A stretch of 64,000 nucleotides of DNA from Steroidobacteraceae bacterium (GTDB lineage Bacteria; Pseudomonadota; Gammaproteobacteria; Steroidobacterales; Steroidobacteraceae): assembly GCA_046347255.1 (NCBI GenBank), contig JAXMGO010000007.1, forward strand, positions 18,031 through 82,030, given 5' to 3'. The notes below the pieces were generated by a model, which was not told where the DNA came from, made no database searches, and worked only from the letters and a program-made list of their open reading frames with translations. The translations under genes and the position numbers were made by a program. Shown here in pieces: positions 2,550 to 62,866 of this stretch (its first letter is position 1; each line of letters opens with the position of its first letter).

Positions 2550-4604
2550 TCAGGAGGTCCAGCCCGTGCCCTGGCCGTAGGGCACGCGGCGCACGAGGTC
2601 CTCGATGTGGCGGATGCGGCCGCCGTCGATGCGGAACAGTTGCGCGTGCAGGTCGGTCCAGGGCGCGAGGCAGGAGGCGGGCACCTGCACGCGCCCGGTG
2701 CCCGGGATCTCCACGGCGCGCGTGGTCGCCGGGTTGTCGAGCGTGGCGAGGTCGAGCACCAGCCCGGCCGCCTCGTCCACCAGCCAGGTGCGATGTTCGC
2801 GCAGGCGCGCGACGCGCGCGAGGAAACCGGCGTCGAGCTCGCCGGCGCAATCGGCCGCGTACAGCCGGAAGCCGGGCACCGCCGGGTCGAGGGCCGGCGC
2901 CTGCGCATTGCCGCTCGCGGCCACGCCGTTCTCGCGCCGCCGGCAGCCGGCCGCCAGCGGCGCGCGCGCGCCAGCGCGCGCCGTGAAGGCCTCGTGGTAC
3001 TGCTCGACCGCGGCGAGCAGGGCGGCGCGCGGCGTCGCGTTGCCCTTGGCACTCAATGCCGGATCGGGCGCCGCGAAGCCCTGCGGGTCGAGGTTGGCGA
3101 GCAACGGCGGCACGAACATCGTGTAGGTCGCGCCCTTGAGCTCGACCTCGGAGCCGCCGTCGCCGTGCGACTTCACGACCGCCTCGACTTCGGGGCGCGC
3201 GATCAACGTCTCGATCTCCGTGACCAACCCGCCGGCCGTGCGGTAGCGCAGCGCCAGCGCGGCGAACAGCCCGAACTCATCCAGCGCGCCGTACCAGCCC
3301 GCCTGGCCGGTGGCCGGGTCGGCGAGGAAGGTGCCCGCGCCGCGCAGGCCGACCAGGCTCTTCCACAGGCCCTCGCCCAGCGCCACGTCGCGCCCGTTCT
3401 CGGTGTAGCGCACGCCGGGCGCGAGCGGCAGGTCCCAGGGCGCGTTGCGGACCAGGCCGTCGAGCACGCGGGTGGTGAGCGCGCGCAGCTGCGCGCGGGT
3501 CGCGGTCGGGACCGGCTTCGCCGGCGGGCGCGTCGCGGCGTAGGTGAGGCTCACGGTGGGCGGGCGCTGCGGCACGACCTGGCGCGAGCCGAACGGCACC
3601 TCCATCAGCGTCATCTCGATGTAGCGGAACGAGCCGTTGATCACCTTGAACGCCTCGGTGACCTGGTGGCAGCGCGGCGTGCGGAAGTACGGCGGGATCT
3701 TCCAGTCGTTGCCGGCGCGGAAGTGGATCGACTCGAGCGTGCCGTCGAAGTCCCACACCGACTGTCCGAGCACCGCGCCGCGCTCGATGTCGACCACCGC
3801 CGCGCGGCGGTCGCGGATGCGCGTCACGAAGGCCATCAGGCCGAGCTGGTACTGCTCCTTCGCCGACAGCGTGATGAAGTTGGTCGCCGTGTCGGAGTGG
3901 CCGTAGCCCTCGACCTTCGGCTGGTGCACGGTGCGGCGCGCGTGCTCGATGCGCTCGCAGTCGTCGCGGAACGGATAGACGCCGGCGCCGTCATTGCGCT
4001 CCAGCGACTGGAAGTAGATCCACGCCGCCGCCTCGAGCGCCTCGCGCGACTGGCGCTGCGCCGGCGGGATCGGCTCGAACCACACCGGATCGGGCTGGCC
4101 GAGCTCCTCGTAGGTCTTCGCGCCGTGCGGATCGCGGATGACGAACTGCTCGGCCCAGGCGATCTCGCGGCCGCGCATCTGGAGGGTCGCGATCAGGATG
4201 CAGCCCTGGCCGTTCTCGACCGCGTTGGCGATGACGCCGGCGAGGCCGTTCTCGGGCTCGGCGAAGTGATGGCGGTAGCGCCCGAGCCGCTCGAGCGTGC
4301 GCCAGCTGCCGTCGCCGAGCGGCAGCCGCTGGTCGTTCTCCGCATAGAAGGCGTCGGCGGCGAAGGGCGCGCGCGCCGGATCGTGCGCGACGAGCGCCTC
4401 GAGGTAGGTGTCGAGCATGCGCTCGAGGAAGGCCCGATCGTAGGGCGCGAGGGCGGCGGGTTGCGCGGTGGCCGGCGTCGCATTCGGCGCCGCGTCCTGC
4501 GCGGCGGCCCGGCCCGCGGCGAGGGCCGCGGCGGTTCCGGTCACCAGCGCGGCACCGGCGCCGGCCATCACGTCGCGACGGCTGATCGTATCGCGGGTCT
4601 TCAC
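2550..4604 (-). CDS. hypothetical exported protein with two tandem homologous halves (Tat-type signal)
   Basis: 684-aa ORF. N-terminus SRRDVMAGAGAALVTGTAAALA resembles a twin-arginine signal. The two halves share recognisable similarity (FYAENDQRLPLGDGSWRTLERLG vs RYTENGRDVALGEGLWKSLVGLRG). Confidence 0.6.
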   Translation of the reverse strand: MKTRDTISRRDVMAGAGAALVTGTAAALAAGRAAAQDAAPNATPATAQPAALAPYDRAFLERMLDTYLEALVAHDPARAPFAADAFYAENDQRLPLGDGSWRTLERLGRYRHHFAEPENGLAGVIANAVENGQGCILIATLQMRGREIAWAEQFVIRDPHGAKTYEELGQPDPVWFEPIPPAQRQSREALEAAAWIYFQSLERNDGAGVYPFRDDCERIEHARRTVHQPKVEGYGHSDTATNFITLSAKEQYQLGLMAFVTRIRDRRAAVVDIERGAVLGQSVWDFDGTLESIHFRAGNDWKIPPYFRTPRCHQVTEAFKVINGSFRYIEMTLMEVPFGSRQVVPQRPPTVSLTYAATRPPAKPVPTATRAQLRALTTRVLDGLVRNAPWDLPLAPGVRYTENGRDVALGEGLWKSLVGLRGAGTFLADPATGQAGWYGALDEFGLFAALALRYRTAGGLVTEIETLIARPEVEAVVKSHGDGGSEVELKGATYTMFVPPLLANLDPQGFAAPDPALSAKGNATPRAALLAAVEQYHEAFTARAGARAPLAAGCRRRENGVAASGNAQAPALDPAVPGFRLYAADCAGELDAGFLARVARLREHRTWLVDEAAGLVLDLATLDNPATTRAVEIPGTGRVQVPASCLAPWTDLHAQLFRIDGGRIRHIEDLVRRVPYGQGTGWTS

Positions 4605-4697
4605 GTCGCTGCCCCCTCGAGGCTCCGTGCCGCGGGTCGCGGCCAGGGGACAAGCGTAGCGCCAACCGGTGCCCGGGGCGCAAGCCTTTCGCCGCGG

Positions 4698-5348
4698 TCA
4701 GCCGGCCATCAGCCCCGGCTTGCCGGCCTGCCAGCGCGCGAGCTCGGTCTCGAGCAGCGCGACGTGCTCGACCTCCTCGGCGGCAAGCTCGCGGTAGAGC
4801 TGCTGTTCGGGCGAGCCGGCCGCCACGGTGCGGGCGCGCTCGGTGAAGAAGGCCACGGCGCGTTTCTCGAAGGTGATCGCGGCCCGGAACAGCGTGGCCG
4901 GATCGTCGATGGAGCCGTCGACGCCGGCGTTGATCGCCGCGATGTCGACGCGGAAGCCGGTGGTCGGCTCGGGCATGCTCACGTGGTAGCGACGGCTGAG
5001 CGTGTCCATGTGCTCGCGCTCCATCTCCGAGAAGCGCCCGAACAGCGCCTTGAGCACCGGGTCGGAGACGCGGGCGGCGGCACGGTCATAGAACGCCTGG
5101 CCGCCGAGTTCGATCTGGAAGGCGGCGCGGATCGCATCCAGCCCGGCCTCGCCCTTCACGGCGCCGCGGCTCAGGGCCTCGAGGCGGCCGCCGCAATGCG
5201 GGCACATGCCGTAGGGGAAGGCGAAACCCTCGCTCACCTTGGCGCAGCTCTGGCAGCGCCACTGCAGCGTCGCGCCGGCACAGCAGATGTAGGACTCCTC
5301 CGAGTCGAGTGGCTGCTGGCACTTCGGGCAGACTCCGACGCCTGACAT
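4698..5348 (-). CDS. rubrerythrin/ferritin-like diiron protein with N-terminal Cys-rich zinc-ribbon
   Basis: 216 aa starting MSGVGVCPKCQQ. Four CxxC pairs at N-terminus, then ferritin-like ExxH motifs (EMEREH, EEVEH). Same strand as and adjacent to the NfnAB-like gene. Confidence 0.75.
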   Translation of the reverse strand: MSGVGVCPKCQQPLDSEESYICCAGATLQWRCQSCAKVSEGFAFPYGMCPHCGGRLEALSRGAVKGEAGLDAIRAAFQIELGGQAFYDRAAARVSDPVLKALFGRFSEMEREHMDTLSRRYHVSMPEPTTGFRVDIAAINAGVDGSIDDPATLFRAAITFEKRAVAFFTERARTVAAGSPEQQLYRELAAEEVEHVALLETELARWQAGKPGLMAG

Positions 5349-5368
5349 GGTCGCGCTCCTTCGGCGGT

Positions 5369-7759
5369 TCAGTGGGACGTGGGCGTACCGGCGGGCGCCG
5401 CCGCGGCCGGTTTCGCGGGCGCGGCGGCCGCGGGTGCCGCGGCCTCGGCCGGCGCGACATCCTCGGGCAGCAACGGCCACTTCGACTTGCCGCCGCGCAG
5501 CCAGGTGCTGATGGCCTTCGCCGCGCGCCGTCCGGCACCCATCGCGAGGATGACCGTCGCGCCACCGGTGACGATGTCGCCGCCGGCGAACACGCCCGGC
5601 AGGTTGGTGCACTGGCTGGGTTCGTCGGCGGCGATGTTGCCCCAGCGATTGAGCGCCAGCCCCGGCGTCGCGCGCCCGATGATCGGGTTCGGTTTGGTGC
5701 CGAGGGCGTAGATCACCGTGTCGCAGTCGAGCTCGACGAACTCGTCCGTCGGCACCGGCTTGCGCCGGCCGCGCTCGTCGGGCTCGCCGAGCTGCATCTT
5801 CTGCACCTTCATGCCGCGCACGTCGCCGGCCTCGTTCAGCAGGATCTCGACCGGGCCGTGCAGGAAGAAGAACTCGACGCCCTCCTCGCGCGCGTGCCGC
5901 AGCTCCTCGATGCGGGCGGGCGCCTCGGCCTCCGAGCGGCGATAGACGCAGCGCACGCGCTCGACGCCGAGCCGGCGCGCCACCCGCAGGCAGTCCATGG
6001 CGGTGTTGCCGGCGCCGATGACGACCACGCTCTTGCCGCGGCTGATCGGCGTGTCCAGGTACGGGAAGCGGTCGCCGCCCATCAGGTTGACGCGGGTGAG
6101 GAACTCGTTGGCCGAGTAGACCTGGCCAGCGTTCTCGCCCGGGATGCCGAGGAAGGCGGGCGCGCCGGCGCCAGCGCCGACGAACACCGCGTCGTAGCCC
6201 ATGCGTCCCATCAGGTCGGGGATCGTGAAGGTCTTGCCGATGACCTTGTTGGTCTCGAAGCGCACGCCCATGTCGCGCAGGCGCTGAACTTCGCGCGAGA
6301 TGATGTCGCGCGGCAGGCGGAAGGCCGGGATGCCGTACTGCAGGACGCCACCGAGCACGTGCAGCGCCTCGTACACCGTGACCTCGCCGCCCTCGCGCAC
6401 CAGGTCGGCTGCGGCCGCGAGGCCCGCGGGTCCCGAGCCGACGATGGCGATGCGGCCGAGCTTCGCGGCCACCTTGGGCGGCACCGCCTTCGGCGCGCGC
6501 GCATGGTCGCCGACGAAGCGCTCCAGGCGGCCGATGCCCACGGCCTCGAGCTTCGGCGCCTTGCTGCGCAGCAGCAGGCACTGCGCCTCGCACTGGGTCT
6601 CCTGCGGGCAGACGCGGCCGCACACCGAGGGGAAGACGCTCGATTCGTGGATGGTCGCGAGCGCGCCGTCGAAGTCGCGCAGCAGCACCTTGCGGATGAA
6701 GGTCGGGATGTCGATGCCGACCGGGCAGCCGGCGATGCACGGCGCCTTGTTGCACTGGATGCAGCGCTCGGCCTCGCGCAGCGCGTCGGCGATCGAGTAG
6801 CCGAGGTTCACCTCGTTGAAGTTGTGCGAGCGCTCCGACGCGTCGCGCTCGGGCATGCGCACCTGCTCGGGCTCGAGGGCGGCGAACTTCTTGTAGTTGC
6901 GCCGCCCCTGCGTCACCAGCTGCTTCTCGACCTGGCAGACGTGCTCGAGGTCGGCGTTGGCCTCGGCCTCCTGGGAGCGGAAGCGCTTCTGCCGCGCCAT
7001 CAGCTCCTTGAAGTCGACCTGGTGGCCGTCGAAGTCCGGGCCGTCGACGCAGGCGAACTTGACCTCCCCGCCCACCGTCACGCGGCAGGAGCCGCACATG
7101 CCGGTGCCGTCCACCATGATGGTGTTGAGCGAGACCAGGGTGCGCACGCCGTAGGGCCGCGTGGCCTCGACGCAGGCGTTCATCATCGGCAGCGGGCCGA
7201 TGGCGATCACCAGGTCGGGGCGGTCGCGCTCCAGCACCTCTTTCAGCGGCCCGGTGACCTGGCCGGCGCGGCCGTAGCTGCCATCGTCGGTGCCGATGAT
7301 CAGCTCGTCGCAGCTGGCCCGGAACTTGTCCTCCCAGAAGACCAGCGGCTTGCTGCGGAAGCCCATGATCGCGGTGGTGCGGTTGCCGGCCGCGCGGAAG
7401 GCCCGCAGCTGCGGGAACACCGGCGCGACGCCCAGGCCGCCGCCGACCAGCACCACGTGGCCGACCTTGGCGACATGCTGCGCGAGGCCGAGCGGACCGA
7501 CGAAATCCGGGAAGCTGTCGCCCTCGCGGAAGTCCTCGCGCATCTCCTGCGTGGTCTTGCCGAGCGTCTGCACGACCATGGTGACGGTGCCGCGCTCGCG
7601 GTCGAAGTCCGCGACCGTGAGCGGGATGCGCTCGCCGCCCTCGAACAATCGCACCATGACGAAGTGCCCGGGCTCGGCGGCGCGCGCGATGTCCGGCGCC
7701 TCGACCTCCCAGAGGAAGGTGGATTCGGTCAGGTCCTCGCGCCGGACGATCGGGTACAT
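5369..7759 (-). CDS. fused NfnA-like (FAD/NAD, 2Fe-2S) and GltD-like (NADPH-dependent glutamate synthase small-subunit family) oxidoreductase
   Basis: 796-aa single ORF. N-terminal ~280 aa is PyrK/SudB-like (GGGLGVAP, C-x-C cluster). The remainder carries GltD-type Cys clusters (CIQCNKAPCIAGCP, CGRVCPQETQCEAQC) and a GSGPAGLAAA FAD/NADPH motif. Confidence 0.8.
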   Translation of the reverse strand: MYPIVRREDLTESTFLWEVEAPDIARAAEPGHFVMVRLFEGGERIPLTVADFDRERGTVTMVVQTLGKTTQEMREDFREGDSFPDFVGPLGLAQHVAKVGHVVLVGGGLGVAPVFPQLRAFRAAGNRTTAIMGFRSKPLVFWEDKFRASCDELIIGTDDGSYGRAGQVTGPLKEVLERDRPDLVIAIGPLPMMNACVEATRPYGVRTLVSLNTIMVDGTGMCGSCRVTVGGEVKFACVDGPDFDGHQVDFKELMARQKRFRSQEAEANADLEHVCQVEKQLVTQGRRNYKKFAALEPEQVRMPERDASERSHNFNEVNLGYSIADALREAERCIQCNKAPCIAGCPVGIDIPTFIRKVLLRDFDGALATIHESSVFPSVCGRVCPQETQCEAQCLLLRSKAPKLEAVGIGRLERFVGDHARAPKAVPPKVAAKLGRIAIVGSGPAGLAAAADLVREGGEVTVYEALHVLGGVLQYGIPAFRLPRDIISREVQRLRDMGVRFETNKVIGKTFTIPDLMGRMGYDAVFVGAGAGAPAFLGIPGENAGQVYSANEFLTRVNLMGGDRFPYLDTPISRGKSVVVIGAGNTAMDCLRVARRLGVERVRCVYRRSEAEAPARIEELRHAREEGVEFFFLHGPVEILLNEAGDVRGMKVQKMQLGEPDERGRRKPVPTDEFVELDCDTVIYALGTKPNPIIGRATPGLALNRWGNIAADEPSQCTNLPGVFAGGDIVTGGATVILAMGAGRRAAKAISTWLRGGKSKWPLLPEDVAPAEAAAPAAAAPAKPAAAAPAGTPTSH

Positions 7760-55997: not shown

Positions 55998-57116
55998 CTA
56001 CGCTTCTTCGGTCCACTGGTAGCGCACCCTCAAGTGGTTCAGGCGATTGTATGGAACCAGCTTTTCGTGCTGAAGCCTGCCAACAACGATGCTTGGCGCA
56101 ATTCCTATGGAATTCGCGAACTGAACAATTCCAGGTTCGGTAATCGCGAGATTAGACGACACGAATTCGGACCACTTATTTGGAGGAATGAGGCGATTTC
56201 TGGAGAACTCGTTCGCTTCCTGTTCGTGCTCCTCCGTCATTCCGGACTCTTCCAAGAAGAGGATTTTCTTGCCGTGCAAGGCAATGTGTCCGCACTCGTG
56301 GAAGAAGGTGAACCACAGCACGTCGTCGCTAAGTTGTCGGACACTAAGTTGGATTAGCGCCTTGTTTGGGGAAAGCCAGCGAACGGCCCCACTAATCGGG
56401 CAGCCCTTAGGGGCCCTCACGATTACTACAGCGACGCCACACTCCGCGAAAAGTTTCCTCAATTTCGGAACGTAATCCGAGGGTTCCCTCTCCACCGTCA
56501 TGGCGCGAGCTTCTTGAACCGCAGCCATGAACTTGTCTCGATCAAAGGGCGCGCACTCAACGTGGCTGGCCTGCAATTCGCCTGCTCGTAGCCAAGCAGC
56601 TACAGAACCCTGTTTGGCCTTGACCTTTTCCGATGCTCGATAGGCCGCGCCCTGAACCTCTTTGACGCAGTGCTCCTGCCATGCGGCAACGGATGCGACG
56701 CCAAAATAGCGGAGGCATTCCTCGACGACAGCCGCCGATCTGCCGGCGGTCTTGATCCAGCCAAATTTGCGCATGTCCAGCAGCGGGAGTTGATCCAGCC
56801 AAGAGACGCTTTGCTCAAGTTGCTCCGTGGCTTCCTCACGAGCTTTGGCTTCCTGGAATCGGGCATCACGGCTAAGCCAGAAGGCTGCAGACGTTCCAAG
56901 GGCCTTTTCCAGAGCAAGCGCCGTTCCCGGAGTGATCGCGACTTTTCCGGCAATCAATTCGTTTACAAACTTCGGCGTGACACCCATGCGCGTGGCCAGC
57001 TCGTTTTGCCGAAGCGCTCTCTCTTCAAGTAAGTCGGCCAGGGTGTCCCCGGGTGGGCTCAGCGAGGAAGGGCGGTACTGGGTTTCGATGTGGTGCTCAG
57101 TCATGGTAGTTGCCAA
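55998..57116 (-). CDS. XRE-family HTH protein fused to ImmA/IrrE-family (COG2856) zinc metallopeptidase; HigA-like antitoxin/regulator
   Basis: N-terminal HTH (…LRQNELATRMGVTPKFVNELIAGK…), C-terminal HEXXH (FFHECGHIALH) with downstream E. Overlaps the upstream HigB-like gene by 20 nt. Confidence 0.75.
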   Translation of the reverse strand: MATTMTEHHIETQYRPSSLSPPGDTLADLLEERALRQNELATRMGVTPKFVNELIAGKVAITPGTALALEKALGTSAAFWLSRDARFQEAKAREEATEQLEQSVSWLDQLPLLDMRKFGWIKTAGRSAAVVEECLRYFGVASVAAWQEHCVKEVQGAAYRASEKVKAKQGSVAAWLRAGELQASHVECAPFDRDKFMAAVQEARAMTVEREPSDYVPKLRKLFAECGVAVVIVRAPKGCPISGAVRWLSPNKALIQLSVRQLSDDVLWFTFFHECGHIALHGKKILFLEESGMTEEHEQEANEFSRNRLIPPNKWSEFVSSNLAITEPGIVQFANSIGIAPSIVVGRLQHEKLVPYNRLNHLRVRYQWTEEA

Positions 57117-57450
57117 TGAAGACGACGCGGATGGCTGTGACCTCTGCGAGATTCACAGAGCCATCTGGAAGATGTGGAACCGGATTCTTGGCTGGTTCAA
57201 CAACCAACCGAAATCCCCCGGTGAGGTGAAAAGCGTACTGACCCGCCCGGTCGGCCTTGAGTGCATGAAAACGCCCCGGCAGGGACGGAGCGACTGCCAG
57301 ATGCTGAGCGGCATCCAGATCTGCTAAGCGCGCAAAAAGTTTTCTTGCGCAGGGGGCACCAAGAACACCTGTGGCAAAGGATTGGTCATGGCACAGCGTC
57401 TCCAGCTTCTTGGAGCGGAAAACTATATCCACGCAGGGTCCGCCTGTCAA
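57097..57450 (-). CDS. higB: HigB-like (RelE/ParE superfamily, 'killer protein') toxin
   Basis: 117 aa. …RFHALKADRAGQYAFHLTGGFRLVVE…VTAIRVVFIGNYHD resembles the HigB/plasmid-maintenance killer family. First gene of a two-gene toxin-then-antitoxin arrangement. Confidence 0.65.
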   Translation of the reverse strand: MTGGPCVDIVFRSKKLETLCHDQSFATGVLGAPCARKLFARLADLDAAQHLAVAPSLPGRFHALKADRAGQYAFHLTGGFRLVVEPAKNPVPHLPDGSVNLAEVTAIRVVFIGNYHD

Positions 57451-57540
57451 AGAATTTCATGCACCTTAAGGGTTATTGAAATTCTATTCCACTCCGATTA
57501 CTATGCACCGGACATGTTAATCAATTCGGAGCTGACACTC

Positions 57541-57855
57541 ATGAACATTCCCCACGACTCGGCTGAAAAGGTCGCCCAGCACAATCCTCAAGAGCCGCCA
57601 CATATCCGGCATCAGGAGCATCCGCCACACCCAGATCCCAATCTGGTTTCGGTAACCCTCAACCGCAACCCCGTGACCATTCGCCGCGGCCAGTACACCG
57701 GCGCGGAATTGAAGGCCGCCCTGGGAGTGCCTGCTGATCACGAGCTCGATCTGGTCGTGAACGGCGAGTTCAAGCCCATCGCCAACGAGGACAAACACCA
57801 TGTCCGCGGCGGCGAGGTCTTTGTCAGCCAGGTGGGGCAGGGCCAGTCCTCGTGA
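57541..57855 (+). CDS. ubiquitin-like beta-grasp protein (multiubiquitin/BilA-like Ubl) of Ubl-conjugation operon
   Basis: 104 aa. GGAG ribosome-binding site 10 nt upstream. His/Pro-rich N-terminal tail then a single beta-grasp-like segment (VTLNRNPVTIRRGQYTGAELKAALGVPADHELDLVVNGEFKPIANEDKHHVRGGEVFV), ending QVGQGQSS. Stop overlaps the start of the next gene. Confidence 0.55.
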   Translation: MNIPHDSAEKVAQHNPQEPPHIRHQEHPPHPDPNLVSVTLNRNPVTIRRGQYTGAELKAALGVPADHELDLVVNGEFKPIANEDKHHVRGGEVFVSQVGQGQSS

Positions 57856-58187
57856 CCGAGGAGGAGTCCCAGCTGCAGGGCCTGCTCTCCATCAGTGAGC
57901 AGGCTGCTGTGGTTCAGGACGGCGCGATCCTGGGTGTCTTGCTGCCCGGCATCCGCATCCAGTCTCCAGCTGGAACCGAAGTCATGGACGCCATGCTTTG
58001 TCCGCGCGGACAGGGCGGCTACGTAACGCGGCTACTGTTGGAGCGGCGGGTCCCGGGCCGAGACAACCTCAATTGGCAGCAGGTGATGGCCTTCGGGCGC
58101 AACTGGCAGACCTGGAGCTGGCAGAACGTCCCGGCCGCGCAGCCGTGGATCAACATCTTTGCCGCCCACGCGAGAGTACTGAGGTGA
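57852..58187 (+). CDS. small putative E2-like (UBC-fold) protein of the operon
   Basis: 111 aa, GTG start overlapping the Ubl stop (GTGA). Positioned where E2 sits in Ubl-E2-JAB-E1 operons. Single Cys (AMLCPRGQGG) as candidate catalytic residue. Assignment is by position only. Confidence 0.35.
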   Translation: MTEEESQLQGLLSISEQAAVVQDGAILGVLLPGIRIQSPAGTEVMDAMLCPRGQGGYVTRLLLERRVPGRDNLNWQQVMAFGRNWQTWSWQNVPAAQPWINIFAAHARVLR

Positions 58188-58702
58188 AGACACACCTCAA
58201 GATCCCGGGCTCGTTGTTGCATGAGATCCATGAGGATCTGTCTCGCCCACACAAGTTCGCGGCCGAGCGGGTCGGGTTCCTTACGTGCGGGATCGCCGAT
58301 GATGGTGGTGGGGGCCACGTTCTGCTGGCCAACCGTTGGCATAGCGTTGCCGACGAGGATTACGTGGACAACCCTCGGGTCGGGGCGGCGATCGGTGGAG
58401 GTGCGTTCCGCAAGATTCTGCAGTACGCCTACAGCAACCCCGTGAGCATCCTTCATATCCATCGCCACGATCACCGCGGCGCCCCGAGGTTCAGCCCGAC
58501 CGATTTGCGCAGCGCCAGTGAGTACGTACCGAGTTTCTTCAATGTCCAGCGCGCGATGCCGCACGGCATTGTGGTGCTCAGTCTCGACCATGCCGCCGGG
58601 CAGGTTTGGGATTTCGGGCGGTCGGCAGCCAGGCAGATTGATGTATTTCAGGTTGTGGGCTATCCGCTGATTGTGGGCTATCCGCTGAGGAAGTGGCAAT
58701 GA
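58184..58702 (+). CDS. JAB/MPN (JAMM-type) metallo-isopeptidase
   Basis: 172 aa, GTG start overlapping the upstream stop. His-rich metal site HIHRHDH…FSPTD (H-x-H…S-x-x-D) and upstream Glu (HEIHEDL). Carries the 18-bp tandem duplication listed as a repeat below. Confidence 0.7.
   Translation: MKTHLKIPGSLLHEIHEDLSRPHKFAAERVGFLTCGIADDGGGGHVLLANRWHSVADEDYVDNPRVGAAIGGGAFRKILQYAYSNPVSILHIHRHDHRGAPRFSPTDLRSASEYVPSFFNVQRAMPHGIVVLSLDHAAGQVWDFGRSAARQIDVFQVVGYPLIVGYPLRKWQ
58653..58688 (+). repeat. perfect 18-bp tandem duplication (TTGTGGGCTATCCGCTGA x2) at 3' end of JAB gene
   Basis: Read directly: copies at 58653-58670 and 58671-58688. In-frame, duplicating VGYPLI/VGYPL. Confidence 0.9.
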
Positions 58703-59523
58703 ACATCAGCCAGCGGTCCAAGCGACAGAGCTTTTTGGGCGACGATAGTGACGAGGTGTTGGCTGGCCTCACCATCGCGGTTATCGGCGCCAGCGGCGGC
58801 GGTTCCCATATTGCGCAGCAACTGGCCCACGTCGGCTTTGGGGCGGTCCATCTGATCGACCATGATCACGCGGAGGAACATCATCGTCACCGCCTCATCG
58901 GCATCAGCCGGGCCGCTGTGAAACACGCCTGGCCCAAGGTCAATGTCCTGCGGCGGCTTATGCAAAGGATTCACCCGGAAGGCCGCGTCATCATTCACCC
59001 GAAGCGCTGGCAGGAGGTCCACGAAATCCTCCGCACCTGCGATCTGGTCTTCACCTGCATTGACGGGTATCTGGCGCGAGAGGAGATCGAGCGCTACTTG
59101 CGCCGCTACCTGGTGCCGATGATCGACGTCGGAATGGACGTGGTGAAGATTGCCGCCGGCCATCAGATCCGCGGGCAGATCATCATTTCAATGCCCGGGT
59201 ACCACTGCATGCGCTGCTTCGGGTTCATTCGCGATGACCTTCTCCGCGCCGAAGCTGCAAAGTACGGGGACGCTGGCGAATTCCCCCAGGTCGTCTGGTC
59301 GAACGGCGTTCTCGCGTCGACAGCTGTTGGTATTGCGACCTCGCTGTTCCTGCCTTGGCAGAGCCGGGACAACTCCTGTCCGTACTTGATCTACGACGGC
59401 AACGCTTCCACGGTGACACCGAGTCCACGCTTGTTGCATCTGCCGGCGTCATGCCGGCATTTCGATGGCCTGGCCATTCCAGGTGACTTGGTCATGTTCC
59501 CCAATTCAACGGCCGCCGCATGA
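58699..59523 (+). CDS. E1-like ThiF/MoeB-family adenylyltransferase
   Basis: 274 aa. Rossmann nucleotide loop IAVIGASGGGSHIAQQL, LIDHD, CxxC (HCMRC). ATGA overlap with the JAB stop. Confidence 0.8.
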   Translation: MNISQRSKRQSFLGDDSDEVLAGLTIAVIGASGGGSHIAQQLAHVGFGAVHLIDHDHAEEHHRHRLIGISRAAVKHAWPKVNVLRRLMQRIHPEGRVIIHPKRWQEVHEILRTCDLVFTCIDGYLAREEIERYLRRYLVPMIDVGMDVVKIAAGHQIRGQIIISMPGYHCMRCFGFIRDDLLRAEAAKYGDAGEFPQVVWSNGVLASTAVGIATSLFLPWQSRDNSCPYLIYDGNASTVTPSPRLLHLPASCRHFDGLAIPGDLVMFPNSTAAA

Positions 59524-59760: not shown

Positions 59761-60966
59761 GTGAGCAAACCGAAACCCGACTTCCAGCGCCCCCAAGCCG
59801 CCGCGCTCGCCGCCCGCCTCGCCGAGCCGCGCCGCTTCGTCCAGGTGGTCGCGGGCCCCCGTCAGGTCGGAAAATCCACGCTGGTCCAGCAGGTCACCGG
59901 CGGGCTCGATGTGCCGGTGCGCTACGTCAGCGCCGACGAACCGACGCTGCGCGCCGCGGACTGGATCGACCAGCAATGGGAAGCTGCCCGCCTCGAAGGC
60001 ACCGGCAAGTCCGGCTCCGTGCTCGTGCTCGACGAAATCCAGAAGATCCCGGCATGGTCCGAGACGGTCAAGCGCCTCTGGGATGAGGACACGCGCAAGA
60101 AGCGCCCGCTCAAGGTGGCGCTGCTGGGCTCGGCCCCGCTGCTCATCGCCCAGGGGCTGACAGAAAGCCTGGCCGGCCGGTTCGAGACGCTGCGCCTGCC
60201 GCACTGGTCGTTCAGTGAAATGCGCGAGGCCTTCGACTTCACGCTCGATGACTACCTGTACTTCGGCGGCTATCCCGGTGCGGCGCCGCTGGTGCGTGAT
60301 CCGGCGCGCTGGGCTCGCTACATCGCCGACAGTCTCATCGAGACCTCGATCTCGCGCGACGTGTTGCTGCTCACGCGCGTGGACAAGCCCGCGCTGCTGC
60401 GGCGACTGTTCGAGCTGGCCTGCCGCTATTCGGGCCATGTGCTCTCGTACACGAAGATGCTCGGCCAGCTGCAGGATGCCGGCAACGCCACGACGCTCGC
60501 GCACTACCTCGACCTGCTCGCCGGCGCCGGCATGGTCCGCGGCCTGCCGAAATTCGCGGGCGACGTGGCGCGCAGCCGCGGCTCCAGCCCGAAGCTGCAG
60601 GTGATGAACACGGCGCTGATGACGGTGACCGCGGGCCTGAGCCCCGCCGAAGTGCGTGCCGACCGCGAGTTCCGCGGGCGACTGATCGAGTCCGCGGTGG
60701 GCGCGCATCTGGCCAACGCCGCGGCCGCGGGGGAGTGCGAGCTGTTTTACTGGCGTGACCGGGGGCAGGAGGTGGATTTCGTCGTCCGCTCCCGCAATCG
60801 GCTGGTCGCGATCGAAGTGAAGAGTGGCCGCGCGCCGCAGGCCCATGCGGGGACGATGGCCTTCGCGGCGGCGTTCAAGGTTCGAACCTCGCTGCTGGTG
60901 GGCGGAGATGGGATCCCCGTGGAAGAATTCCTGACGCGGCCGGTCGCACACTGGCTGGCAGACTGA
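59761..60966 (+). CDS. AAA+ ATPase with C-terminal DUF4143-like domain
   Basis: 401 aa, GTG start. Walker A GPRQVGKST, Walker B VLVLDEIQ. C-terminal region typical of the AAA_14/DUF4143 ATP-binding protein family. Confidence 0.8.
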   Translation: MSKPKPDFQRPQAAALAARLAEPRRFVQVVAGPRQVGKSTLVQQVTGGLDVPVRYVSADEPTLRAADWIDQQWEAARLEGTGKSGSVLVLDEIQKIPAWSETVKRLWDEDTRKKRPLKVALLGSAPLLIAQGLTESLAGRFETLRLPHWSFSEMREAFDFTLDDYLYFGGYPGAAPLVRDPARWARYIADSLIETSISRDVLLLTRVDKPALLRRLFELACRYSGHVLSYTKMLGQLQDAGNATTLAHYLDLLAGAGMVRGLPKFAGDVARSRGSSPKLQVMNTALMTVTAGLSPAEVRADREFRGRLIESAVGAHLANAAAAGECELFYWRDRGQEVDFVVRSRNRLVAIEVKSGRAPQAHAGTMAFAAAFKVRTSLLVGGDGIPVEEFLTRPVAHWLAD

Positions 60967-61015
60967 CGCCATGACCGCGACTCCAATGGCCTCGCAATGA
61001 CCGCACAGGAGCTCG

Positions 61016-62866
61016 ATGCGTACCGCTGAAGATCTTTTACTCGAACTGCATTCGGTGGATGAATCCCATCGGATCGAGGCGAAGCGCGCGACACAGATCG
61101 ATCGGTCGGTTCTGGAGACCGTGTGCGCGTTCAGTAACGAGCCCGGCCTCGGCGGGGGCTATTTGCTCCTGGGCGTCGCGCACGATTCCGGCGATCTCTT
61201 CAACAACAAGTATGTAGTGGATGGCATCAGCAACCCTGACAAGTTGCAGTCCGATCTCGCCAGTCAATGCGCCAGCGCGTTGAACCGTCCCGTGCGGCCA
61301 CGAATCTCTGTCGAGACGTTGCAGGGCAAGTCAGTCCTTGTGGTCTTCGTACCGGAGGCCGCTCCGACCGAAAAGCCTGTTTTCCTTTCCAATCTCGGTC
61401 TTCCCAGAGGCGCATTCCGCCGCATCGGTTCCACGGATCAGGAAGGCACGGAAGATGACCTGATCGCTCTCTACGCTGGACACCAGCAGGACACTTACGA
61501 CGGCGCGGTTGTGCAGGACGGTGATCTTTCCGACATCGATCCGGCAGCCATCGCGGACTATCGAGAGCAGCGTCGACGTATCAATCCGGACGCCGAGGAG
61601 CTGACATGGTCCGACGCTGATCTGCTTCGCGCCGTGGGTGGCGCCAAGCTTGAAGGAAATCAGCTGAGGCCCACCGTGGCTGGCGTCTTGCTGTTCGGTA
61701 CTGCTGCCGCTCTCCGACGTTGTTTCCCGATGATGCGTATCGACTACATTCGCGTCGCTGGGAGGCAATGGATCGAGAATCCGGAACATCGCTTCGACAC
61801 GTTGGAAATCCGTGCACCATTGCTGACCGCCATTCGGCGCGCCACGAATGCCGTGCGGGATGAGCTCATCCAGTCCTTCTCCCTTCCGGAGGGTTCTCTC
61901 GCGCGAGAGGACGAGCCCGCTCTGCCGCTTCGGGTCATACGCGAAGCCGTGGTGAATGCCGTCATGCACCGCAGCTACCGCACGCACGGCGCCATTCAGA
62001 TCATCCGCTATGCCAACCGGCTGGAAGTGCGCAATCCCGGGCATTCGATCAAGGCCGAAGAGCAGCTGGGGGAAGCCGGGTCCGAAACCCGCAATCCGCG
62101 GATAGCGGCGGTTCTGCATGATGTGAACGTCGCCGAGACCAAAGGCAGCGGCATCCGCGCCATGCGCGAATTGATGCTGGCACAGAACCTCCTACCGCCT
62201 GCGTTCGAGTCGACCCGCCGGCCGGACCAGTTCGTTGCCACCTTCCTGTTCCATCACTTTCTGGGCGATTCCGACCTGGCCTGGTTGCGGCGGCTCTCCC
62301 AGGAGGCGCTCTCCGACGAGGAATCCCGGGCCCTGGTGTTCGTTCGCGAGGTTGGGGCAATCGACAACGCCGCGTACCGAGCCATCAACCGAACAGACAC
62401 CTTGAACGCCTCTGCGCATCTGCGGCGCCTGCGTGATTTGGGTCTGTTCGAGATGAAAGGCGCCGGCAACCGGGTCTACTACGTACCCTCGGCCACCTTC
62501 TCCCGCTGTCTGGAACCGCAGGCCCAGCCCGCACCCGCGGATTCCCACCAGCTATCCACGGATCCCCACCAGGTATCCCAGGATCCCCACCAGCTACTGG
62601 CGCAGATGCCCGAGGCTCTCCGGGCTCGCTTGCCTGCGCCCGGCAGCAAACCCCGCAAGGACGTCTTGCGCAGACTTCTGCAGGATCTTTGCAGCTGGCG
62701 CGCGCTGAGCGCCAGAGAACTCGGAGCCATTCTCGCGCGCCGCGACCACAAGGAGCTGGTCCGCGAGCACTTGACCCCCATGGTGGCTGAGGGGGCTCTC
62801 GCCTACACCGTCCCGGAAATGGAAAACCATCCGGATCAGCGATACACGGCGGCTGCTCGCCCATGA
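61016..62866 (+). CDS. Schlafen/AlbA_2-domain + HATPase_c_4 + wHTH protein ('RecG-like transcriptional regulator' family)
   Basis: 616 aa. N-terminal AlbA_2-like segment (…HRIEAKRATQIDRSVLETVCAFSNEPGLGGGYLLLGV…), then a central ATPase-like region and a C-terminal winged helix. Three 21-nt tandem repeats near the 3' end. Confidence 0.65.
   Translation: MRTAEDLLLELHSVDESHRIEAKRATQIDRSVLETVCAFSNEPGLGGGYLLLGVAHDSGDLFNNKYVVDGISNPDKLQSDLASQCASALNRPVRPRISVETLQGKSVLVVFVPEAAPTEKPVFLSNLGLPRGAFRRIGSTDQEGTEDDLIALYAGHQQDTYDGAVVQDGDLSDIDPAAIADYREQRRRINPDAEELTWSDADLLRAVGGAKLEGNQLRPTVAGVLLFGTAAALRRCFPMMRIDYIRVAGRQWIENPEHRFDTLEIRAPLLTAIRRATNAVRDELIQSFSLPEGSLAREDEPALPLRVIREAVVNAVMHRSYRTHGAIQIIRYANRLEVRNPGHSIKAEEQLGEAGSETRNPRIAAVLHDVNVAETKGSGIRAMRELMLAQNLLPPAFESTRRPDQFVATFLFHHFLGDSDLAWLRRLSQEALSDEESRALVFVREVGAIDNAAYRAINRTDTLNASAHLRRLRDLGLFEMKGAGNRVYYVPSATFSRCLEPQAQPAPADSHQLSTDPHQVSQDPHQLLAQMPEALRARLPAPGSKPRKDVLRRLLQDLCSWRALSARELGAILARRDHKELVREHLTPMVAEGALAYTVPEMENHPDQRYTAAARP
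62540..62602 (+). repeat. 3 x 21-nt imperfect tandem repeat (GATyCCCACCAG…) inside Schlafen-like gene
   Basis: Copies at 62540-62560, 62561-62581, 62582-62602 encode DSHQLST/DPHQVSQ/DPHQLLA. Confidence 0.7.

Follow-up and report, generated by a model that had tools for sequence, protein, structure and literature searches.

A HigB-like protein and a HigA-M78 peptidase fusion as a candidate controller module of a divergent ubiquitin-like operon

A contig of a Steroidobacteraceae bacterium (assembly GCA_046347255.1, contig JAXMGO010000007.1) was analysed over a stretch of 64,000 nucleotides, hereafter called the window. At positions 55998-57540 the window carries a pair of minus-strand genes together with the intergenic region that separates them from an operon encoding a ubiquitin-like (Ubl) pathway. 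The first gene of the pair encodes a HigB-like protein, the second a fusion of a HigA-type helix-turn-helix (HTH) domain to an M78 zinc peptidase. By comparative sequence analysis and by analogy to characterised regulators, we suggest with moderate confidence that this pair is a HigBA-derived controller module of the adjacent Ubl operon. Computational comparison establishes which domains are present, that the active sites are intact, where the dyads lie, that the cassette is co-inherited and that its regulator slot is equivalent to the one held elsewhere by CapH and CapP. The regulatory conclusions rest on position, conservation and analogy.

The listing of open reading frames (ORFs) gives the pair as two overlapping minus-strand ORFs together spanning 55998-57450. 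They lie head-to-head with the genes for Ubl (Multi_ubiq), an E2-like protein, a JAB peptidase and a ThiF/E1 enzyme, which occupy 57541-59523 on the plus strand, and the divergent arrangement described in the original prediction is thereby confirmed. Source annotations of the first minus-strand ORF read RelE/ParE or HigB-1. Its start is most likely GTG 57432, yielding 111 aa, as 24 of 24 HigB-like homologues in the database have 109-121 aa and all open with M-(D/E)-I. For the same reasons we rejected TTG 57450, the start that underlies the previously proposed length of 117 aa. This TTG belongs to a conserved TTGACA hexamer, and in one related locus (L134) the spacing between TTGAC hexamer and start codon differs by 1 nt, which rules out that the stretch beginning at TTG 57450 is coding. 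With GTG 57432 as start, the intergenic region measures 108 bp and not the 90 bp (57451-57540) reported before; its AT-richness stands, with a GC content of 40% vs 70% over the window as a whole. For the HTH-peptidase the most likely start is ATG 57104 (368 aa), in an 8-bp overlap with the HigB-like stop (ATGACTGA). Gene calls of close homologues are concordant, with 111 aa for the HigB-like protein and 367-368 aa for the HTH-peptidase. ORF calling in the fetched relative loci (L numbers) was heuristic, and the related loci are not phylogenetically independent. The genes and predicted elements of the locus are as follows.

55998..57104, minus strand: HigA-type HTH plus M78 (ImmA/IrrE/CapP-like) zinc peptidase, 368 aa, ATG at 57104
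57097..57432, minus strand: HigB-like (RelE superfamily) protein, 111 aa, GTG start
57422..57450, minus strand: sigma-70-like element TTGACA-17-TATAGT, 8 nt downstream of dyad A, 11/12 matches
57459..57477, no strand: dyad A, proximal operator candidate, ATGCACC-ttaag-GGTTATT, between two back-to-back -35 hexamers
57476..57504, plus strand: predicted sigma-70 promoter of the Ubl operon, TTGAAA-17-TACTAT, found by scan
57503..57521, no strand: dyad B, distal operator candidate, ATGCACC-ggaca-TGTTAAT, by consensus match
57528..57531, plus strand: predicted ribosome-binding site GGAG, 9 nt before the Ubl ATG, from sequence and invariant in alignment A1
57541..57855, plus strand: ubiquitin-like protein, single beta-grasp, Multi_ubiq-related (Pfam Multi_ubiq 2e-3), 104 aa
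57852..58187, plus strand: small E2-like protein, 111 aa, E2 label from position only
58184..58702, plus strand: JAB/JAMM peptidase, 172 aa, E...HxH...S..D motif invariant in alignment A4
58693..59523, plus strand: ThiF-type E1 adenylating enzyme (Pfam ThiF 1e-22), 276 aa

The six genes constitute a low-GC insert (55998-59523) between gmk-rpoZ-spoT and a gene for an AAA_14/DUF4143 ATPase, with 56% GC in the pair, 62% in the Ubl operon and 72% in the left flank; GC returns to host level at ~55900. A search of the island edges around the cassette recovered no tRNA gene and no flanking direct repeats.

The HTH-peptidase combines in a single 368-aa ORF the HTH and peptidase functions that CapH and CapP supply from separate genes. 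Its HTH part matches Pfam HTH_3 (3e-9) and TIGR02607 antidote_HigA (50.3 bits, cutoff 47.7), and P. vulgaris HigA is among the best structural matches of the HigA half. The peptidase part matches Pfam Peptidase_M78 (4e-6) and contains the motif FFHECGHIALH; a structure search returned CapP as its nearest solved structure. The fusion of an XRE HTH to a COG2856-type zinc peptidase, as originally predicted, is thus well founded. Across 74 relatives (52-89% identity), the active-site residues H269, E270, H273 and H277 are invariant, and E294/A297 of the ExxAN motif are nearly so. Because HExxH and ExxAN are conserved in this manner, the M78 zinc peptidase is, as judged from its residues, intact and not the degenerate, inactive remnant that the original prediction had considered as a possible objection to itself. 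Among the PADLOC models, PD-Lambda-2_B (PDLC03982) matches near full length (E 2.6e-31; residues 13-352 vs profile positions 51-377 of 402), capP covers the catalytic core alone (1e-6), and the RmrA models give weak partial matches (best 9.5e-8). The family is large, comprising 1,398 representatives at E<=1e-30 after clustering at 50% identity.

CapP carries a C-terminal GAF domain that forms a groove binding single-stranded DNA (ssDNA), and a cysteine-switch loop is found in ~33% of CapP proteins. In the window protein a GAF domain is absent, the ~70 residues after ExxAN being all helical in the AlphaFold 2 model, and no cysteine occurs in residues 274-293, the position of the CapP cysteine switch between HExxH and the third ligand. 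Because the GAF domain, the interdomain ssDNA groove and the cysteine switch are all missing, transfer of DNA-damage sensing from CapP is not supported by the sequence. The proposal of a CapH/CapP-like regulator of the Ubl operon therefore remains plausible, given the dyads, the cassette, the shared slot (see below) and the structural match to CapP, while its damage-sensing part is not supported.

The HigB-like protein shows no significant match to Pfam HigB-like_toxin (E 0.28), and its PADLOC search gave no match even at E<=10, the PD-Lambda-2_A model included. Its AlphaFold 2 model has a mean confidence (pLDDT) of 95, with P. vulgaris HigB structures as best matches in the PDB (TM-score 0.78, E 7e-5). 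By predicted fold, the two proteins of the pair are thus HigB and HigA. In 24 homologues H56, R62, R75 and H110 are invariant and Y109 is nearly so, and by our reading these residues equate to the catalytic His, the Arg and the C-terminal Tyr-His of HigB. A large, mainly alphaproteobacterial branch retains the gene pairing, yet its HigB-like proteins, encoded by the first gene in L005-L009, L014, L016, L018-L020, L024, L030, L034 and L035, have lost the His, the Arg and the Tyr-His at the C-terminus. Due to this loss, the first gene of that branch is predicted to be incapable of acting as an RNase toxin.

The only relative with experimental tests is the validated defence system PD-lambda-2, in which the HTH-peptidase B is toxic alone and the HigB-like A rescues (Vassallo et al. 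2022, PMC9519451). Since the fused protein is the toxic partner there, toxin and antitoxin labels for the window pair are unsafe and the roles uncertain. With the roles reversed in PD-lambda-2 and the catalytic residues missing from the HigB-like protein of many relatives, it is likewise uncertain whether the second gene neutralises a HigB-like toxin, as was first assumed.

Of the ATGCACC copies noted originally, the second was correctly placed at 57503-57509, while the first lies at 57459-57465 instead of 57447-57453. As a stand-alone direct repeat ATGCACC was rejected for want of enrichment (11 copies in the window vs 7.7 expected), and it is relevant as a half-site only: each copy forms half of a 19-bp imperfect dyad (dyads A and B above). 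We built the dyad consensus ATTAACC-N5-GGTTAAT from relatives; it is partly informed by the window's own cassette relatives, although loci that have no Ubl operon contributed its perfect forms. Dyads A and B are the two best matches to this consensus in all 64 kb, and shuffled sequence, scanned with a laxer threshold, yields 1.2 dyad sites per 64 kb. All close relatives examined have a dyad 40-46 nt upstream of the HigB-like start, whether they possess a Ubl operon or not (relatives with the proximal dyad: L001, L002, L008, L013, L015, L023, L037, L136, L138 and L142-L144). Because it is present regardless of a Ubl operon, the proximal dyad is predicted to be the module's own operator. A second dyad, 44-46 bp further out (-87 to -89), is found solely where a Ubl-first operon is divergent, at seven distinct loci:

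second dyad, four-gene type: window, L044, L046, L047, L132
second dyad, Bil-like type: L134, L141

A perfect 9-nt inverted repeat, AGAATTTCA/TGAAATTCT (57451-59 / 57477-85), shares its exact centre with dyad A, which it lengthens to 35 bp. We rejected this repeat as a conserved element, as its arms are not kept in the cassette relatives (alignment A1), and treat it as a window-specific extension.

Both dyads coincide with the promoter predicted for the Ubl operon (called, like all other promoters, by consensus match): its -35 hexamer is adjoined by dyad A, and its -10 hexamer and start site are covered by dyad B. The promoter scan found the corresponding element of L047 as TTGAAA-17-TATGAT with 10/12 matches, and among the cassette relatives the hexamers are conserved and the spacer is variable (alignment A1). 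The TTGACA-17-TATAGT element on the minus strand is conserved in L044, L047, L132, L134 (spacer 18) and L138. With a -10 that overlaps HigB-like codons 2-4, it would yield a transcript beginning inside the HigB-like ORF, with no in-frame start codon downstream. As judged from its position, the element might be an internal promoter for a transcript of the HTH-peptidase only; it weighs on this idea that no separate ribosome-binding site is obvious for the HTH-peptidase gene.

The pair and the Ubl operon travel together. Copies of the six-gene cassette share 60-93% protein identity, while their flanks differ on both sides, these being recombinase/terminase, DarTG, type I restriction-modification (RM), Fic/relaxase and, in the window, gmk/AAA-DUF4143. 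Homologues of the HTH-peptidase at 80-89% identity always lie within the same six-gene unit, and a 62%-identity copy (L054, identical to L132) has this unit between a Fic gene and a relaxase gene. Among the genome loci of the HTH-peptidase, 9 of 43 adjoin a Ubl/E1-type system, in several architectures:

Multi_ubiq-E2-JAB-E1, co-directional: L018/19
Multi_ubiq plus a 500-aa ThiF protein: L020
DUF2604-CEHH plus Prok-E2_C-ThiF: L034/36/39
Bil-like operon: L035
JAB with or without E1: L016, L025

Members at 54-63% identity adjoin a Bil-like operon, DUF2188 plus Multi_ubiq plus DUF6791-ThiF, DUF2188-324aa-HNH, a TIR operon, type III RM, or nothing obvious. DUF2188-led and beta-grasp/E1 operons are partner kinds that have been reported for CapH/CapP. 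A distant subfamily carries a related dyad, GTTACS-N5-SGWAAC, ~30 nt in front of the HigB-like gene. In L018/19, L036/39 and L035 this dyad recurs after the HTH-peptidase stop and ahead of the co-directional Ubl or Bil-like operon, there followed by TTGACx-17/18-TATxxT; scanning 240 kb gave 20 sites vs 5 expected. As far as sequence can tell, these co-directional loci are independent support for an operator placed on the cargo promoter, in another gene arrangement. In six genomes (L003, L017, L021, L022, L027 and L028) a convergent aGPT-Pplase3/ADDT gene and a thymidylate-synthase-like gene stand just downstream of the HTH-peptidase; both encode DNA hypermodification enzymes, which are typical of phages.

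The same association was seen from the side of the Ubl operon. A metagenome scan with the JAB alignment yielded 80 Ubl-E2-JAB-E1 operons, and the 42 with at least 1.3 kb of upstream sequence were counted according to what occupies the upstream slot:

CapP, with or without CapH (PADLOC capP down to 1.9e-60): 25/42 loci
un-annotated pair, ~526 aa plus a smaller protein: 8/42 loci
fused PD-lambda-2B-like HTH-peptidase: 5/42 loci
window-type HigB-like/HTH-peptidase pair: 1/42 loci
nothing detected: 3/42 loci

In three of the five PD-lambda-2B-like cases the fused protein is a true PD-Lambda-2_B (E 3e-158), and the gene before it encodes a PF09907 HigB toxin. In L055, L060 and L065 (~3170-5660), PD-lambda-2 A and B are directly upstream of, and co-directional with, a Ubl-E2-JAB-E1 operon with a longer Ubl (241-257 aa). 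There the Ubl operon stands where PD-lambda-2 has its gene C, and type I RM genes adjoin. The un-annotated occupant of the regulator slot is a divergent pair of 504-555 aa and 120-275 aa (L058, L059, L063, L064, L079, L091, L106 and L122), for which no significant Pfam or PADLOC match was obtained and one weak, sub-threshold match to Sigma70_r2 was seen; it could be CapK/CapS-like or a further regulator family.

Placing the pair among known systems, we consider it a variant of the known CapH/CapP-type regulators and not a new type of system. CapH and CapP control adjacent immune operons, among them CBASS, Bub, DISARM and others, and 31% of Bub operons carry CapH and CapP (PMC11601596). The window pair shares with them an XRE-type HTH and an M78 zinc peptidase (HExxH and a downstream Glu ligand) beside a defence operon, often in divergent orientation. 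It differs in that HTH and peptidase form one polypeptide with the HTH, of the HigA subtype, at the N-terminus, in the missing C-terminal GAF domain and cysteine-switch loop, and in the HigB-like partner that is predicted to be co-translated. P. vulgaris HigB-HigA resembles the pair in the fold of both proteins, the toxin-first order, two operators (predicted in the window) and the retained His, Arg and Tyr-His; P. vulgaris HigB2HigA2 binds two operators that overlap its own promoter. In contrast to it, the window's putative antitoxin has an extension of ~280 residues with an active-looking metallopeptidase, and the predicted operators also lie on the promoter of a divergent cargo. A study of 2009 already described fusions of Xre to COG2856 in operons with RelE-family or PIN toxins, and predicted that they form LexA-like three-component toxin-antitoxin systems (TAS; Makarova et al. 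2009, PMC2701414). The window pair has the same architecture, and a LexA-like repressor/protease controlling a further component was proposed there; that prediction named no regulated target, whereas here a candidate target, the Ubl operon, and predicted operators are available.

PD-lambda-2 likewise has a HigB-like first gene and a HigA-HTH/peptidase fusion second, and its B model covers the window protein near full length. The window differs from it in several respects: there is no P4-antitoxin-like third gene, nor any further gene downstream of 55998, the HigB-like protein is of the P. vulgaris type and not PF09907, with no match to PD-Lambda-2_A, and B is matched at the level of a distant subfamily (~25-30% identity). 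As for Rosmer (RmrT/RmrA), no RmrT-like gene was found at the locus, and the PADLOC matches to RmrA are weak and partial.

The candidate cargo resembles Bub (6E) and Bil operons. Its order Ubl-E2-JAB-E1 equals A-B-C-D of type I Bub, its E1 is short with a single ThiF domain, and a link to Cap-type regulators is common to both. Type I Bub (6E.1) has a Ubl-E2 fusion, a JAB-E1 fusion and DUF6527 (BubE); the window operon has four separate small genes instead, lacks DUF6527, and its E2-like protein fits no Pfam model. For DUF6527, no match was obtained in the four operon proteins by Pfam, and no gene lies between E1 and the AAA_14/DUF4143 gene at 59761. Homologues of the Ubl in L018 and L020 match Multi_ubiq at 1e-20. 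The E2-like protein gave no match in either Pfam or PADLOC, and its gene is kept as second gene in 80 related operons. The JAB protein of the window has no Pfam match and no significant PADLOC match.

Three further observations concern the locus itself. A perfect 18-bp tandem duplication at 58653-58688, near the 3' end of the JAB gene (VVGYPL/IVGYPL), is absent in 4/4 aligned homologues. An exact 14-nt direct repeat, TGTGGTGCTCAGTC, occurs at 57089-57102, the junction of HigB-like stop and HTH-peptidase start, and again at 58570-58583 inside the JAB gene; for 4.6 kb the expectation is ~0.04 such 14-nt pairs. On the right side of the cassette, 59761-62866 encodes the AAA_14/DUF4143 ATPase (PADLOC PDC-S01, E 1e-174) and a 616-aa Schlafen AlbA_2/HATPase_c_4 protein, and the region beside gmk-rpoZ-spoT resembles a small defence island.

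Control of the Ubl operon by the pair is well supported by the dyads on the predicted promoter, the co-travel of the cassette and the presence of CapH and CapP in the same slot, and we infer DNA binding, repression, a trigger, a cleavage target and possibly toxicity as follows. In the repressed state, the HigA-type HTH would bind dyads A and B, probably as a dimer and probably together with the HigB-like protein, like HigB2HigA2. Unstressed cells would thereby keep the regulator operon repressed and, more tightly and at two points, also the Ubl-E2-JAB-E1 operon. Upon a phage- or stress-linked signal, the M78 peptidase may cleave the repressor, in cis or in trans, or the HigB-like partner. Cleavage would derepress the Ubl operon, paralleling CapP/CapH, ImmA/ImmR, IrrE/DdrO and LexA. 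In the window's subfamily, where the HigB-like protein keeps its RNase-type active-site residues, it may be freed concurrently and slow translation.

Several observations weigh against this model. The HTH-peptidase has no sensor domain that would match the GAF domain of CapP. Loci with a divergent DUF2188-led operon have one dyad only; a strict rule by which two dyads denote a divergent operon was rejected for this reason, and the second dyad is thus not required for divergent control. The Ubl promoter call rests on a 9/12 consensus match, and the promoter scan recovered no such promoter in L132 or L134. Moreover, the strongest promoter-like element of the regulator operon would fire inside the HigB-like ORF, which the model does not account for. 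L144 carries the pair without obvious cargo, mobile-element settings occur as well (ParB-methylase/terminase, DNA hypermodification genes), and in some loci the pair stands beside IS66-like genes, as read from the sizes of unannotated genes; such contexts would fit the picture of a selfish toxin-antitoxin (TA) module. Finally, PD-lambda-2 itself behaves as a TA-like abortive-infection system (PMC9519451).

The most probable of the alternatives, although we consider it rather unlikely, is as follows: the pair could be an autonomous, PD-lambda-2-like TA or abortive-infection module that regulates only itself, by means of its operator, and lies beside the Ubl operon through the clustering of defence genes. 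The match of the HTH-peptidase to PADLOC PD-Lambda-2_B, the combination of defence and toxin-antitoxin behaviour in PD-lambda-2, the diverse and at times cargo-less neighbourhoods, the proximal dyad that occurs with or without a Ubl operon and the conserved HigB active-site residues in the window's subfamily all agree with it. However, the third PD-lambda-2 gene, needed for defence, is absent at the locus. Self-regulation also leaves aside the extra dyad at Ubl-first divergent operons and the one before co-directional Ubl or Bil-like operons, the co-inheritance of six genes across differing flanks and the slot otherwise occupied by known regulators. Even for true PD-lambda-2 A+B pairs there are loci where a Ubl operon follows immediately, at the position of gene C.

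Improbable in our view is that the pair acts mainly as an addiction module stabilising a mobile six-gene cassette or island, with any effect on Ubl transcription being incidental. The cassette is clearly mobile, given its GC of 56-62% vs 72% in the flank and flanks that differ between loci, and the toxin-first layout with overlapping genes is typical of higBA. Yet many relatives whose HigB-like protein lacks the catalytic residues keep both the pairing and the adjacency to Ubl genes, and the predicted operators at Ubl promoters would be unaccounted for; addiction is, besides, compatible with a controller function and does not exclude it. It is very improbable that the M78 peptidase works within the Ubl pathway, on the Ubl precursor, on conjugates or on a phage protein, with the HTH being autoregulatory only: the active site is intact and a Ubl ending in ...GQGQSS would require C-terminal processing, but the operon already has a JAB peptidase for this step, the HTH-peptidase family is also paired with type III RM, TIR and HNH operons without Ubl, and its characterised M78 relatives ImmA, IrrE and CapP all cleave an XRE repressor.

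Taken together, a HigBA-derived controller of the Ubl operon is the reading we favour. As far as we could find, a large, GAF-less family derived from HigB/HigA has not been described as serving Ubl, Bil and RM operons in the manner of a Cap module, nor, as far as we could find, have its predicted operator and the placement of this operator on cargo promoters. The locus joins three fields that have been treated separately, namely HigBA, the Xre-COG2856 'three-component TAS' with PD-lambda-2, and the Cap regulators, and it would be a compact switch in which two 19-bp sites, a promoter region of 108 bp and a single catalytic glutamate come together. Phage immunity and a broader stress response are both considered as roles of Bub-type operons (PMC11601596), and how they switch on bears on what they do. 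If the model is true, the oddity of PD-lambda-2, in which B is toxic and A rescues, would be that of a regulator with variable cargo, and a family of ~1,400 representatives would join the regulators able to flag uncharacterised defence operons. More tentatively, and with considerable doubt, pairs of a HigB-like protein and a HigA-M78 fusion, including PD-lambda-2 A+B, may represent widespread, unrecognised TA-derived 'Cap'-type controllers, in which one proteolytic event derepresses a neighbouring defence operon (Ubl/Bub-like, Bil-like, type III RM, TIR or HNH) and frees the HigB RNase, with sensing by a route other than the GAF/ssDNA groove of CapP. If so, PD-lambda-2 would consist of a regulator (A+B) and an effector (C), and the induction of immunity would be mechanistically coupled to translational arrest.

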